A stretch of DNA of 64,000 bases from Phoronis australis (GCA_002633005.1 NMRA01000455.1:110652-174651), one strand, 5' to 3'. Counted from the first letter of the stretch, positions 1 to 21,628 are shown. Notes: a model not told the origin generated them from the sequence alone. Numbers and translations: made by a program.

Positions 1-180
1 GAATGCTCACTTTACTGCCGAAGAAACTCGGCTTGCATCTCGGCTTACTTCGAAGACGATACAAAAACATGTTATTTTTCTCGCGAGACCTACCACGAGA
101 TGGACTCACCAGGAAAAGATGGAAAACCGGGAGAAAATGTTGGAAAGATTCAAAGAATCGGAGTCTTTAAATCGGATGAG
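1..180 (+). CDS. Exon: C-terminal part of a PAN/Apple domain
   Basis: Frame 1 reads ECSLYCRRNSACISAYFEDDTKTCYFSRETYHEMDSPGKDGKPGENVGKIQRIGVFKSDE. The C-x3-C-x5-C-x-S-x2-F...C spacing is PAN-like. Donor GAG|GTAAAT at 181, phase 0. Confidence 0.75.
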
Positions 181-3100
181 GTAAATTTGCTATTTTGCTT
201 GAACCATCTGTGGCAAAGAAATTTGTTTCATGTGTTTCTATACACATTTTAATGTTTCAAAAGTGCCTTTGGTAAGGAATCAGATGATAGAATATTGAAA
301 AAGTTATGTAACCGTTTATGAAAGAAAATCAAAAGGAATATCATTATAAAAAGTTTGCAAATAACATCCGAAATTTTGCAATAAATTGGTCACACAATGC
401 GGTTTCACGTACTGTGCCAGTTCACGTTTGAGAAATTTCTGATATAAATGTCGCTGCGCAGTTAGTTTGATTCAAAAAGTAAACTGCAAAAAATTTCCCA
501 TTGAATTAGCGTAAAAGAACACTTTTTGTTAAAAAGTGCTACCGCTCCCTAGTAGGCTTGTCATTTAAAATGTTAGCTTCTGATTGCACCACCAACAATA
601 TTATTTACCTTATAAAAAATGTTTTATCCAATACGTAGGACAAACTCAACATAATCTACAACTCGGTTTCGTAATCATAGATTTAACATAATACATAAAA
701 ACATTTCTGATACTATAGGTAATCATTTCTATTCCAAAAACCATACAAATAATAGAAAAACTCCAACACCCCAGTACCCCTCACAGACTCAAAAGAGAAC
801 GATATTGGATAGACAAGCTCAATACAATAGAACCTCATGGATTGAACATAAAAACTTCTTAAAATTTGTCATTGAACTTTTTACGCAAAAATGTATCATA
901 TTCATTACACCATATCTTATATGTCAATTGTCATATAGTGTTTGATTTCACTTTATTTCTGTTTCTGTTGACAAAAGAAGTTATTACATCCGAAAATTTC
1001 AGTTGATCCGTTCTTGTTGTTTTATTTACCTATTTATATTCTTAGTTTCCAAGCAATACAATACGATTGAAAAACATTTTCGGCACCTGAGCTTCAACTC
1101 TGGCGTTCGAGTCATGTGCCAATGTTTTTTGTTTGACTAGATTTTTCATTGATAAAATAGATCTGATGAAACTAAACGGTTTTGAGTATTTCAATAAATT
1201 GTTGTTACCGTGATCTAGCTACTATGTGCCATCAAAACTTATGCTTTGAAAAGCGAATGCATTATGGACCATTTCGTTAAATATGTTGTCAGTTTCATAA
1301 GTTTGCAAAAACTCAGGTTGTGTAAGAAAAGTGTAGGTATTGTGAGCGAAACTGAATAAAAAATAATAAAATTCAAATTAAACCATTCACCTGTACAACT
1401 ATCCTTTATAATTACATTTGGACTGCATTCCATACGTCTTCTAATGTGTTAATGACGTCAATATCAATTACATCATGCATGTCACGAGTTTGCAAGTAAG
1501 TGTTTGTTGTAACAATCGATCAGTGATTAGGCTACAAGGGCATCACTTGACAATCTTTGTAAAGGATTTCCTTAATTAGTGTAATGAACCGGTAACCTAC
1601 TGTCCAGACATTTCTTTCTGCTTAGTGTTGCCTGAAGAGCAACTGTTTGCCCGAATCTATCTTAACGTGCATGCAATTTTTGTTATTTATCGTAGTGACG
1701 TGTATGCATTGTAGAACACCATACAAAAACAAGTCAACTAAACTTTTCACGCAACATCGCCAGCCTCTCTTGGGATTACAAGTCACGGTTAAACACAATA
1801 TAGGCAAGTCCTGAGACAATCTAGTGTCCTTATCAAAAACCTCACAAGAGTTTCCGGATAACTTGGAAACAAGTCTGAAAGAGAACATTTACTTGGAAAC
1901 TTCGTTCTTAAACTATTATACCTGGTGCATACGAAAATAAAATGCATTTCGTCTTCAATTAAATTTGTGTTAGATTCTTTACATAACCCTTCATGTAATG
2001 AAGTTGTCGAAAACCTCTCTTAATTTCACCGCTGATGACGGAATTCATATTCCTATAATTTAATTAGCACTTTCATCTCAAAATCCCAGCAATTTTGCTA
2101 GATATTTTAAGGCTTTTTGTGAGGGGATCATCCAGGAACTTCCGTCTAGTAACGGACGTCTAGACTGTAGCAACAGTAGCGGTTAGGCGACATGGGTGAA
2201 TGTTCTCGTTGGTTTTACATATAGTTTATGATCAGTGCCCAAACTGTGTTTCATAGGGATGTGTTTCAATGGTATGCTAGCTGAACAGAGAAAGACTATG
2301 TTTGGTTTTTAATTTCCCAAAACCGATCGAAAATGGCGAAACTTCAGAGACCAGAGCCATGTTGCTGCCGAAGATGATCGCTGCTGGGTAAAGAAGGGCT
2401 AGCTGTAATTATAAAAATAAGACATGATTTCTCACGAAATCCAAGGTCTTTGTATGTCCGTCACGTACAAACTTACAAAAACAGTGAGAGATAATGAGAT
2501 CACGTAAAATTTTTCGGACTTCTTGCCCCCCCCCCCCNCCCCCTCGGACTGGAACACATGAAGTTCTTGTAGTACAATACTAGCCACATTATCAATTGGA
2601 AGTAGGTGAATAGTTTTAACTTGTTAAAGCAGCGAAAACTTCAAAAATGCAATTGTCATTACTTTTAAGACGGTTTTGTATGTTTTGAGATTGTGGTTTG
2701 ACTTGTAATTTTGATTTATTTAATTATTTTGAGCAAGTTATTCATGCGTGTATACTATATTATTAATTGTAATACATAGTTATCAAATAAAATAATTAAA
2801 TAAAAGCGCATGGTATTATAAAATATGTTAAATAAAAGCATCGGAGTAGTACTTTCGTTTAAGTTTTAAAGAAATCAAAAGATGGTTGCTGGTGGACATG
2901 TATGGAATTTTAAAAATATGATATTGGTGAAGCGTTACAAAATTAACGAGCGCTAACTGGTGAATCATACCAACCAAACGCTGTACCTAATTCAAATAAT
3001 TTAGTGTATCATCCGTGCTGTAGCATGAACGTGTTCGTGTTGTATCTTGTCTTACTCATTTAGCTCTATGAATAAACAAAAACGATCAGCAATATTTAAT

Positions 3101-21100: not shown

Positions 21101-21628
21101 GGAACATCCGATTGTTATGCCAGGGAAAGGTCGAATGTTCACATTAATGCTAAATCCTACCTAGCATTGTTAATCACATTTGATTTAGGCCAAAACAGAA
21201 GCGGAGCGTTGGATAGATGTGTCGTTATTTACTTACGCACGAAGTTTAAAATTCGTGCTTAGCATAGTTACCTTAATAGTTTTTGTCTTTGAGCTTGTCT
21301 TTATGTTAGTGTGGAAATGAGACAATAGATATCCCCGCTAAGATATTGCTTTGAATTATCCATGTTATTTCCATGTCTCATGCTCTCAATATACTGTTGA
21401 ATTGAACTGTATGCGTCTTATGATAACTTGACTAGCGTCATCTCATCAGAAGATATTTAGGCAAAACTATTTTTCTTTCCAGTGAGTGGCTACTGCGACC
21501 TTCCCGCAGGAAGCTACAATATTAGACTTTACGTCCAGACGTGTCCTGGTTACAGCCACAACGACGCATACACCTGCTGGAACTCTGCCTGCCGACTGAT
21601 GGTCAACGAAGTCTTCACAGTTGGTTAG
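1..21628 (+). CDS. Multi-exon gene (5' end outside window) for a mosaic extracellular protein: PAN/Apple + Cys-rich + CTHRC1 C-terminal domain + fibronectin type II + two more CTHRC1 C-terminal domains
   Basis: Phase-compatible GT-AG exons: <1-180, 4231-4339, 5246-5340, 6149-6347, 11982-12140, 12663-12830, 13475-13557, 14740-14941, 15923-16075, 16556-16662, 19952-20177, 21483-21628 (TAG). The total is 1827 nt = 609 codons with no internal stop. The donor at 16076 (GTTGTT) is weak; 16052 is an alternative in the same phase. Confidence 0.85.
4231..4339 (+). CDS. Exon: short Cys-rich (EGF-like?) module
   Basis: ccctttcag| ANNNNVDSSTECTNTICGDGPHACMKDCTNNVGVCV |gtaagc; phase 0 to 1. Confidence 0.7.
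4497..4650. mobile_element. Short MITE; a related arm lies at about 3940-4020
   Basis: gttcagtaacg..ctaggacctagctaaa pairs with tttagcgaggtcctagcgttactgaac. Confidence 0.55.
5246..5340 (+). CDS. Exon: start of CTHRC1-C domain 1
   Basis: ttgcag| PLEECDEVPVANIRHYYYSNFASGTDDGTLM |gtaaga; resembles CTHRC1 N-x-KQC-x-W...D-x-G-x-I. Confidence 0.75.
5651..6083. mobile_element. Fold-back MITE with long imperfect inverted arms
   Basis: ctaaatcacatactaaaaagcataaaagtc...ttccg pairs with cggaaacg...tgctttttagtaagtgatttag; inner arm tcccgcgtcag..gacctggtttt pairs with aaaaccaggtc..ctgacgcggga. Confidence 0.75.
6149..6347 (+). CDS. Exon: core of CTHRC1-C domain 1
   Basis: TQHFNKQYPYTSLRVSFRGVLRANHNCGGCCTRWYFTFNDQECPSPGNIE matches the CTHRC1 motif FTK...LRV.F.G.LR...CCQRWYFTFNGAEC. 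Confidence 0.9.
6806..6912 (+). mobile_element. Fragment of the same Penelope-like pLTR
   Basis: acagtgtatatagactagaggtcggtgtaaatagaccaagagattttaataatagttgt...cctcagagcggttttaggaagtc is near-identical to 26746-26805 (reverse complement) and 28256-28318. Confidence 0.8.
7289..8172. mobile_element. Non-autonomous DNA transposon, copy 1, 5-bp TSD GTGCC
   Basis: Termini CAGTGGCGGATCTAG...CTAAATCCGCCTATG; GTGCC at 7284-7288 and 8173-8177; homologous over its length to 36920-37883. Confidence 0.85.
11982..12140 (+). CDS. Exon: end of CTHRC1-C domain 1
   Basis: VDGICELTVTGNVVIKFRVGTCSGYGVADAYTGWGSG matches CTHRC1 VEGLC...VGTC..Y..GDASTGW. Confidence 0.9.
12663..12830 (+). CDS. Exon: fibronectin type II (FN2) domain
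   Basis: TYGGNAGGSSCRFPFVYKGKSYNACTDTDHGQPWCSTTPNHDHDRRWGNCP fits the FN2 consensus. Symmetric phase 1-1 exon, in a frame not shown by the ORF track. Confidence 0.92.
13475..13557 (+). CDS. Exon: start of CTHRC1-C domain 2
   Basis: ctcttag| KCPKLSRFNIKQYSWTGSSGTDDGDIY |gtaagt. Confidence 0.8.
14740..14941 (+). CDS. Exon: core of CTHRC1-C domain 2
   Basis: TFYYNKRSADTAIRVLFQATIYLYQHGALRYSIRFDGNDCTNPGSING; good acceptor and donor. Confidence 0.85.
15923..16075 (+). CDS. Exon: end of CTHRC1-C domain 2
   Basis: DGMCNNIAAGRRSIVIHIARVSGSMDGYTGWNSRSRVIVEEI matches CTHRC1 GLC.GI.AG...TGWNSVSRIIIEE; 3' boundary uncertain. Confidence 0.85.
16556..16662 (+). CDS. Exon: start of CTHRC1-C domain 3
   Basis: ccacag| VTRDGIIQRLPEYNFQQWRWWALGDATNNGHIGSI |gtaagt. 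Confidence 0.75.
19421..19770. mobile_element. MITE with TACCG...CGGTA ends (Tc1/mariner-pogo-like)
   Basis: taccggaattttccgtagat...cccatgg..tattcggaaaa mirrored by ttttccgaataaacgcccatggg...atctacggaaatccccggta. Confidence 0.75.
19952..20177 (+). CDS. Exon: core of CTHRC1-C domain 3
   Basis: SVTYTKKSSQSLLAVQYNGDLRQYESSYNSAGCARWYLTFNGAECSTPGPI. Confidence 0.9.
21483..21628 (+). CDS. Terminal exon: end of CTHRC1-C domain 3
   Basis: ttttctttccag| SGYCDLPAGSYNIRLYVQTCPGYSHNDAYTCWNSACRLMVNEVFTVG* (TAG 21626-21628). Confidence 0.88.

Follow-up and report, generated by a model that had tools for sequence, protein, structure and literature searches.

A Phoronis australis gene with PAN, FN2 and three tandem CTHRC1 C-terminal domains, predicted to fold as a single-chain trimer

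Introduction

In canonical CTHRC1, a collagen helix brings three identical heads together. Here, we describe a gene at the start of a 64,000-nucleotide stretch of DNA from Phoronis australis (GCA_002633005.1, NMRA01000455.1:110652-174651; the whole stretch is called the window), which encodes three unlike heads of this type in one chain. We assign a probability of about 0.55 to the reading that the three diverged heads close into a trimer of the C1q/TNF type, and that the protein, likely secreted, is likely a collagen-free recognition protein for glycans or surface patterns.

Cthrc1 has been defined by Leclere et al. (2020) as a collagen repeat followed by the C-terminal domain, for which ab initio models are C1q-like and compatible with a trimer, and domains without collagen have been reported from choanoflagellates, dinoflagellates, and bacteria (PMC7058181). 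A footnote in the supplement mentions other collagen-less CTHRC1-domain proteins in Lingula and Phoronis, and no tandem CTHRC1 domains are described in the text consulted (PMC7058181). Three motifs of the domains in the window were not found in that supplement, although a motif interrupted by a gap or a line break could have been missed. A trimer of axolotl CTHRC1 has been modelled with AlphaFold-multimer (PMC11581807), and the oligomers of proteins with C1q domains (C1qDC) are described elsewhere (PMC6409975). The mussel protein HcC1qDC6, which has three tandem C1q domains, binds bacteria, lipopolysaccharide, and peptidoglycan, and the word 'trimer' does not occur in the paper on it (PMC5519582). 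Much work on CTHRC1 concerns cancer and tissue repair (PMC7058181); its head has no solved structure matched by sequence, so far only modelled trimers.

Results

The gene and its exons

The spliced model consists of 12 exons, all on the plus strand within positions 1-21628 of the window. All 11 introns run from GT to AG, with phases 0,1,0,1,1,1,0,1,1,0,1, and the spliced open reading frame (ORF) of 1827 nt encodes 608 residues followed by a TAG stop, with no internal stops. The domain order is partial PAN, Cys-rich segment, CTHRC1_C, FN2, CTHRC1_C, CTHRC1_C, where the three CTHRC1_C domains (PF25815) will be called D1, D2, and D3. A sequence-only reading of the window had proposed 12 phase-compatible exons with this order, and its proposal is borne out by the splice sites, the open frame, the Pfam matches on exons, and the end-to-end alignment with relatives. 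The 5' end of the gene lies outside the window, and homologues place about 67 residues upstream of exon 1. The exons are listed below with bit scores of single exons (Pfam cut-offs: PAN_1 21.4, CTHRC1_C 27 bits); P0001 and P0003 are two of six full-length relatives, and X1 to X3 are RNA runs, all treated further on.

Exon 1, 1..180, plus strand: C-terminal part of PAN and linker, model residues 1-60; PAN_1 22.7 bits; 4 Cys common to 6/6 relatives; alignment starts at P0001 residue 68
Exon 2, 4231..4339, plus strand: Cys-rich segment; AG/GT, phase 0-1; 4/5 Cys align in 5/6 relatives; no Pfam match
Exon 3, 5246..5340, plus strand: pre-domain Cys and first strand of D1; phase 1-0; tblastn match to P0003 146-180; Cys102 in 6/6 relatives
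Exon 4, 6149..6347, plus strand: core of D1; PF25815 48.4 bits
Exon 5, 11982..12140, plus strand: end of D1; PF25815 34.9 bits; stranded RNA reads in X2 and X3
Exon 6, 12663..12830, plus strand: FN2 module in the D1-D2 linker, phase 1-1, 56 codons; fn2 63.3 bits; absent from 6/6 relatives; reads in X1 only
Exon 7, 13475..13557, plus strand: pre-domain Cys and first strand of D2; phase 1-0; Cys306 in 6/6 relatives; few reads (X1, X3)
Exon 8, 14740..14941, plus strand: core of D2; PF25815 22.2 bits alone, CTHRC1-domain profile E 2e-13; donor confirmed by RNA
Exon 9, 15923..16075, plus strand: end of D2 and start of the conserved D2-D3 linker; PF25815 28.9 bits; acceptor confirmed by RNA; donor 16075 weak, supported by linker alignment to Lingula
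Exon 10, 16556..16662, plus strand: rest of linker and first strand of D3; phase 1-0; aligns with relatives; few reads
Exon 11, 19952..20177, plus strand: core of D3; PF25815 49.8 bits; stranded reads in X1 and X2
Exon 12, 21483..21628, plus strand: end of D3 and TAG stop; PF25815 31.8 bits; same endpoint as in relatives

Five of the six core and end exons of the CTHRC1_C domains exceed the cut-off when searched alone, exon 8 (22.2) falls below it, and exons 2, 3, 7, and 10 gave no Pfam match in such searches. When a CTHRC1-domain profile is applied to all 2200 six-frame ORFs of the window, only six pass (E from 3e-24 to 3e-4; next best 1.3), and these are the ORFs that hold exons 4, 5, 8, 9, 11, and 12. 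This pattern of matches is not due to chance, and the same search found no further CTHRC1 exon elsewhere in the window.

Each CTHRC1_C unit comprises three exons (phases 1-0-1-1). Of the two introns inside a unit, one has phase 0 and the other phase 1, and both occur at equivalent sites in 3/3 units. From these common sites it follows that a module of three exons was triplicated in tandem; the pairwise identity among the three domains is now 28-30%. At most junctions there are frame-keeping splice alternatives at a distance of 15 nt or less, and therefore the exact exon borders, except those of intron 8, rest on homology.

A family with PAN and three heads

A profile made from exons 4, 8, and 11 was compared with 1.84 billion representatives and gave 493 matches at E <= 0.001, the best 150 of which were examined. 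Top matches among these 150 are Lingula anatina LOC106162620 (P0001, XP_013395411) and LOC106165752 (P0005), together with P0003, which has 611 residues encoded on one 2632-nt contig. Further Lingula proteins with three domains are LOC106180315, LOC106178942, and LOC106175114; in LOC106180490 and LOC106175063, which look truncated, there are two, and Bugula neritina KAF6026444 is a two-domain fragment whose domains group with D2 and D3. In the Lingula RefSeq entries, where the family is multigene, the label is 'uncharacterized protein'.

PAN and three CTHRC1_C domains without collagen are found in 6/6 full-length relatives, i.e., five Lingula genes and P0003. The model aligns end to end both with P0003 (32% identity, 624 columns, E 1e-74) and with P0001 (32% identity, 619 columns), the alignments beginning at residue 67-68, inside PAN. 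Identity to the window protein is about 32-36% in the family, and the Lingula paralogues are 30-54% identical to each other. In 5/6 relatives the upstream part, which is free of collagen, is made up of a leader, hydrophobic by eye, and the first half of PAN, and because the relatives start in this way a signal peptide is expected among the roughly 67 missing residues. The Cys-rich segment is likewise present in 5/6 relatives. P0005 looks 5'-truncated and is without the rest of this segment, yet it keeps the equivalents of Cys102 and Cys306, the residues just before D1 and D2 that are retained in 6/6 relatives.

The spacing from D2 to D3 is 154-159 residues in 7/7 family proteins, with a conserved linker, and the spacing from D1 to D2 is 200 residues in the window protein versus 141-148 in 6/6 relatives. 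FN2 is a clean insertion of a phase 1-1 exon into the D1-D2 linker, and we classify the window protein as a member of an undescribed family, PAN + 3xCTHRC1_C, with a lineage-specific FN2 exon. Since FN2 is absent from all six full-length relatives, it must be seen as an add-on and not as a core element of the family. Searches for close relatives that have FN2 yielded none, which is weak evidence: one with the family alignment added only a 79-residue fragment, and a word-based search for homologues of exon 11 among longer proteins found 0 (28 candidates).

FN2 matches the full profile (1-42) with four Cys, and its best PDB matches are the FN2 modules of MMP-9 and MMP-2. Those modules and fibronectin's bind gelatin, and the consensus aromatic residues are tied to the gelatin pocket. 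In comparison with the MMP-2/9 consensus, the window module has His and Asn in place of Tyr and Phe, and a two-residue gap before the Trp-Cys motif. As two aromatic positions differ, gelatin binding by this FN2 cannot be assumed; nothing was found in the literature on the role of these aromatic residues. PAN domains, for their part, bind glycan or protein.

The sequence-only reading knew of no described protein with this architecture, and this holds in part. No description of the triple architecture, or of six family identifiers, was found in the literature searched, to which subscription papers and bioRxiv supplements could add one. The form without FN2 is not unique, being a multigene family in Lingula, and collagen-less proteins are already footnoted (PMC7058181).

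Absence of collagen

For membership in the Cthrc1 family, at least four Gly-X-Y triplets before the domain have been taken as criterion (cnidarian sets, Leclere et al. 2020). The longest run in the model has three, located in exon 1 after PAN (residues 38-46; window 112-138, plus strand), and we judge these three insufficient for a helix; runs of similar length arise by chance in the collagen-free relatives, where 4/6 reach two to three triplets or more and three reach three. No exon has a Pfam Collagen match in the visible part of the model (1-21628), and the full-length relatives have no collagen over their whole length. The absence of collagen asserted in the sequence-only reading accordingly stands for the visible model, with its at most three triplets, and is predicted from the relatives for the upstream part. 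From this follows that the protein is not a Cthrc1 family member as defined.

Predicted structure

The Lingula homologue P0001, which is 32% identical to the window protein and has no FN2, was modelled in its place. For its three-domain part of 443 residues, AlphaFold2 gives a predicted local distance difference test (pLDDT) of 89.5 and a predicted template modelling score (pTM) of 0.91, calculated without templates from 28 sequences. A pTM of this size implies that the three domains are predicted in a fixed arrangement. Among 48,161 PDB representatives, four chains reach Z 8 in comparison with this model, all of them engineered single-chain trimers, and the next row has Z 7.3. The four are given with Z, root mean square deviation (rmsd), and number of aligned residues.

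5hzf, C1q head: Z 26.5, rmsd 3.4, 336 aligned
4dou, adiponectin: Z 26.4, rmsd 3.6, 330 aligned
5kca, Cbln1: Z 24.1, rmsd 3.8, 346 aligned
4zch, APRIL-BAFF-BAFF: Z 22.5, rmsd 3.7, 338 aligned

Foldseek also ranks C1q and adiponectin chains first (5hzf, E 7.8e-10). A single Lingula domain (P0151; pLDDT 85.9 from 97 sequences) is predicted as a jelly-roll beta-sandwich, for which the C-terminal domain (CTD) of Pgp3 (Z 12.5, rmsd 2.5, 121 aligned) and the TNF-like lectin PLTL (Z 12.2, rmsd 2.4, 122 aligned) are tied as best match, with BclA (10.1), EDA (9.6), collagen VIII NC1 (9.2), and C1q (9.2) below them. At the level of sequence, the PDB holds no match to the CTHRC1_C domain, and the C1q family (PF00386) matches neither the 12 exons nor the full-length relatives. 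With P0001 160-603 as query, the Atlas gave CTHRC1 clusters with a single domain first, and after them clusters of Pgp3 and BC2L-C that are below 0.9 and leads only. Strands and loops are conserved without contrast (0.57 versus 0.56).

To exemplify the effect of FN2, consider D1 and D2-D3 of the homologue as separate chains, with no alignment, which mimics the break. The score is 0.52, and the best of three controls reaches 0.03. The three runs gave 0.52, 0.21, and 0.54 with contact agreement of at least 7% and partner pLDDT of at least 77, which is weak support. In calibration, 51 of 78 solved complexes and 2 of 108 mismatches attained the mark. Scores of 0.60 or below came from only 5 of the 78 complexes, but from each of the 4 mismatches, out of 180, that passed. 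The score in this test may owe something to a resemblance to solved trimers.

The single-chain pseudo-trimer that had been inferred earlier is now supported by prediction on the Lingula homologue, both by the pTM of 0.91 and by the superposition on single-chain trimers, and the test with separate chains adds a little. For this homologue, a jelly-roll fold with three-fold packing in one chain is predicted with high confidence.

Evolution of the triplets

A domain tree was calculated from 70 rows, taken from 33 proteins and the first three domains of P0153; domains below 25 bits, including one of the four in P0041, were left out. D1, D2, and D3 of the seven family proteins group by position, with two changes, which is the minimum and is attained in 0 of 200 shuffles, and with modest support (approximate likelihood ratio test, SH-aLRT, 84/86/79). 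Rows from outside the family fall between the three groups. From the grouping by position follows that the triplication likely predates the split of these lineages. The triplets of P0012 and P0015 (JGI; probably bacterial by sequence) form a set of their own with support 96, and those of dinoflagellates and other non-family proteins form another with support 98; from these separate sets follows that triplication likely happened more than once. The P0021 cluster includes Symbiodinium entries, and the P0039 cluster a Cladocopium entry. P0153 (1395 residues) has nine domains with period three, the identity being 58-59% at distance 3 and 6 and 37-39% otherwise, and P0009 has five domains, also with period three.

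In a census of 164 sequences, biased towards multi-domain proteins by the query and including near-copies, 127 sequences have a single domain and 1 has none; two domains occur in 11, three in 20, and four in 2, and there is one sequence each with five, eight, and nine. Among the 36 with several domains, the four with collagen runs of at least nine triplets have two or four domains, and 23 of the 32 without collagen have three, nine, or a period-three fragment.

Several of these proteins deserve mention in their own right. P0153, P0002, and P0009 are arrays of A-B-C triplets of CTHRC1_C, up to 3x3, and likely are strings of single-chain heads. In the dinoflagellate proteins P0021, P0039, and P0043, a Cys-rich stretch and a hydrophobic tail come after three CTHRC1_C domains. 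By eye the tail resembles a glycosylphosphatidylinositol signal, and these proteins are candidate surface adhesins of coral symbionts. P0012 and P0015 are long, fibre-like proteins with three C-terminal CTHRC1_C domains. P0018 of Branchiostoma floridae joins five folate-receptor domains to two CTHRC1_C, and P0129 joins RING/TRAF zinc fingers to CTHRC1_C, each either a real fusion or a gene-model error.

Transcription

The RNA set consists of three raw-read runs with matching species label and one contig set. Reads are present in the bins of exons 5-12 at a depth of about 1-3; in the bins of exons 5-11 first mates fall on the minus strand only, the RNA likely being plus, and in the bin of exon 12 they fall in both directions. 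Repeat-free intron bins are empty in 14/15 cases. Run X4 has zero depth over the exon bins, except for a repeat-containing bin adjoining exon 12. A joint from 14941 to 15923, GT..AG, is seen in four reads from two runs, so that RNA confirms the proposed junctions at 1/11 (intron 8), the other ten not being seen at this depth. Transcription of the gene is weak in the runs examined; the gene is real, and we infer its one-transcript structure from homology.

The initial mapping of reads was dominated by intronic repeats and is uninformative either way for junctions 1-4. Interspersed repeats at 7289-8057, 18967-19180, and 18126-18450 (introns 4 and 10) have copies at 36920-37637, 30691-30889, and 54069-54401, and most RNA reads fall there. 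Reads at 18397-18401 belong to the repeat common to 54069-54401. An extra exon in intron 1, 3747-3910/3923, was rejected, having 6 stops in either splice form, no Pfam match, and an Atlas match below 0.9. The stretch 3747-3923 (plus strand) is exon-like, with an AG and two GT sites, and its stranded RNA reads all differ from it at 3782 and 3785; it is probably a stray copy, with the transcribed exon itself elsewhere.

Discussion

How the protein may work

In the mechanism that we propose, covalent linkers would replace the collagen helix as the device that gathers three heads. Such linkage would free the three domains to diverge, and three unlike clefts could then be carried by one monomeric particle. 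When domains are only 28-30% alike, as here, the clefts should differ, which would make the particle a hetero-trimer from one gene. Cys102 and Cys306 may pair at the base of the head, where FN2 could loop out as an extra binding module beside PAN. FN2 and PAN might then direct the protein to matrix or microbes, as the sequence-only reading had proposed.

In PLTL, the sugar is bound where two neighbouring protomers meet (PMC12914763). From the binding properties of PLTL and HcC1qDC6, from the expanded and diverged Lingula family, and from the added PAN, it follows that a secreted recognition role is the likeliest function. That the ligand is a glycan or a microbial surface is argued by analogy; it is the weakest step, and we put its chances a little below even.

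Several points weigh against the proposed recognition trimer. A common fold shows no function, and Pgp3, EDA, and TNF ligands match the model about as well as lectins do. The fold model is that of a homologue, 32% identical and without FN2, with 141-148 residues from D1 to D2 versus 200 here, and its trimeric form may reflect a bias of the predictors towards solved C1q/TNF trimers, despite the lack of a PDB sequence match. The most variable loops among the relatives are not localised on a structure, RNA showed no junction between domains, and 9 of the 32 collagen-free multi-domain proteins have two domains, several of which look truncated, with P0018 as a real or mis-modelled exception.

The same head may instead act as a secreted modulator of protein partners, Wnt/Frizzled/Ror or TNF-receptor-like, during development or regeneration, and be anchored in the matrix by PAN and FN2; this we find unlikely although not far-fetched. 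EDA, Eiger, BAFF, and TL1A are among the single-domain fold matches (Z 8.3-9.6), weak transcription, as in three RNA runs, would be in keeping with a signalling function, and mammalian CTHRC1 binds components of the Wnt pathway (PMC7058181). However, unlike the conserved single gene of vertebrates, the family has several copies that diverge fast (Lingula paralogues are 30-54% identical), and the triplet design occurs also in dinoflagellate and probably bacterial surface proteins. We know of no Wnt system in dinoflagellates or bacteria.

A structural or adhesive component of matrix, shell, or tube, where head and FN2 cross-link collagen or other polymers, is less probable still. C1q-type heads of collagen VIII/X and otolin act in matrix structure. 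Such a role would accord with the closeness of FN2 to the modules of MMP-9, MMP-2, and fibronectin, with the fold match to collagen VIII NC1 (Z 9.2), and with the occurrence of PAN domains in the Lingula shell proteome (PMC13425148). But in the supplement to that proteome, as far as it could be searched, the two PAN proteins are not those of the family by accession, there is no PF25815, and a search for family accessions gave none (PMC13425148). Moreover, FN2 is missing from 6/6 relatives and lacks two aromatic residues of the MMP consensus, and expression in the runs seen is low.

There may also be no packing within the chain, so that three chains lie in register and each domain forms a homotrimer in a stack of heads, or FN2 may have freed D1. 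The relatives with collagen and two or four domains (P0004, P0016, P0022, P0041) must trimerise between chains, in the sponge protein P0004 an FN2 separates such domains, and the runs with unlinked D1 and D2-D3 disagree (0.52, 0.21, 0.54), which makes that test weak. We nevertheless hold this arrangement to be very improbable, in view of the pTM of 0.91 and the superposition of three domains on single-chain trimers, of domain identities that are kept by position across relatives, of the D2-D3 linker and both pre-domain Cys that are retained in the window protein, and of the lack of a collagen or coiled stalk that could register three chains. Finally, that the 12-exon model fuses separate genes, or that FN2 is a skipped or stray exon, so that the claimed protein is not made, can practically be dismissed: 1/11 junctions was seen, reads from FN2 occur in X1 only and those from exons 5 and 8 in X2 and X3 only, and skipping of a phase 1-1 exon keeps the frame, but the model is colinear with six full-length relatives, including P0003 on its single 2632-nt contig, there is no stop or start between domains, and FN2 is intact with four Cys and good splice sites.

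The single-chain recognition trimer suggests a wider scheme, which is tentative and has the odds against it. Here, a stalk-less CTHRC1 head, i.e., a self-assembling trimer of C1q/TNF type with clefts between protomers, would have been rebuilt independently as a three-domain single chain in lophophorates, dinoflagellates, other eukaryotes (up to 3x3), and bacteria, and the lophophorate version would be a multigene set of hetero-trimeric pattern receptors with three different clefts, diversified by exon shuffling (FN2).

Natural three-in-one versions, position-specific domains, and period-three arrays provide independent genomic evidence that CTHRC1 heads act as trimers of C1q/TNF type, for whose assembly collagen is probably dispensable. 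A collagen-free single chain is easier to use for expression, structure determination, and ligand screening than a triple-helical protein, and an unannotated lophophorate gene family gains a name and a testable role. If the lectin role is true, human CTHRC1 becomes a candidate for glycan binding.

Other features of the window

A broken retroelement with reverse transcriptase lies at 26706-27766 (plus strand; RVT_1 28.1 bits at 27039-27434), and 60 nt of its flank are common to 6806-6865 in intron 4. Fragments of an ATP-grasp gene occur at 28414-29643 (minus strand; ATPgrasp_Ter 33.4 bits), to which an ORF without Pfam match at 32333-32842 (minus strand) may belong. From about 37000 to 64000, on the minus strand, there is a gene with many exons (ORFs assigned by eye), where ORF 61595-61996 matches Sec39 with 25.9 bits and six ORFs have no Pfam match; this Sec39-containing gene is presumably NBAS.

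Comparison with known systems

The design principle, tandem jelly-roll heads in one chain, has precedents. Closest to the window protein are the Lingula proteins like LOC106162620, P0003, and Bugula KAF6026444, which have the same PAN, domain order and spacing, D2-D3 linker, and pre-domain Cys, and are free of collagen; the LOC106162620-like relatives differ by the absence of FN2 and by an identity of only about 32-36%. The CTHRC1 family (PF25815) has a homologous C-terminal domain, but one head per chain after a Gly-X-Y helix in a three-chain trimer, whereas the window protein has three different heads, no helix, and PAN and FN2 in addition. The sponge protein P0004 (Oscarella pearsei EP00118_P015510) resembles the window protein in having tandem CTHRC1_C domains with FN2 between two of them, and differs in having a collagen helix, four domains, and no PAN. 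As its domains fall among the collagen-type CTHRC1 rows, its fusion with FN2 is likely convergent.

Further away in sequence, bivalve C1qDC proteins such as HcC1qDC6 are secreted, collagen-free, and have three tandem jelly-roll heads, but belong to the true gC1q sequence family, with no PAN or FN2 mentioned in the text consulted (PMC5519582). The closest solved folds to a single domain are TNF-like bacterial trimers, namely Chlamydia Pgp3 CTD, the lectins PLTL and BC2L-C (N-terminal domain), and BclA CTD (Z 10-12.5); these are homotrimers of separate chains with 12-16% identity, a likeness of fold only. The same predicted arrangement of three domains is found in the single-chain trimers 5hzf, 4dou, 5kca, and 4zch (Z 22.5-26.5 over 330-346 residues), but these are laboratory constructs from C1q/TNF sequence families with 7-8% identity, whereas the type represented by P0001 and the window protein is natural.

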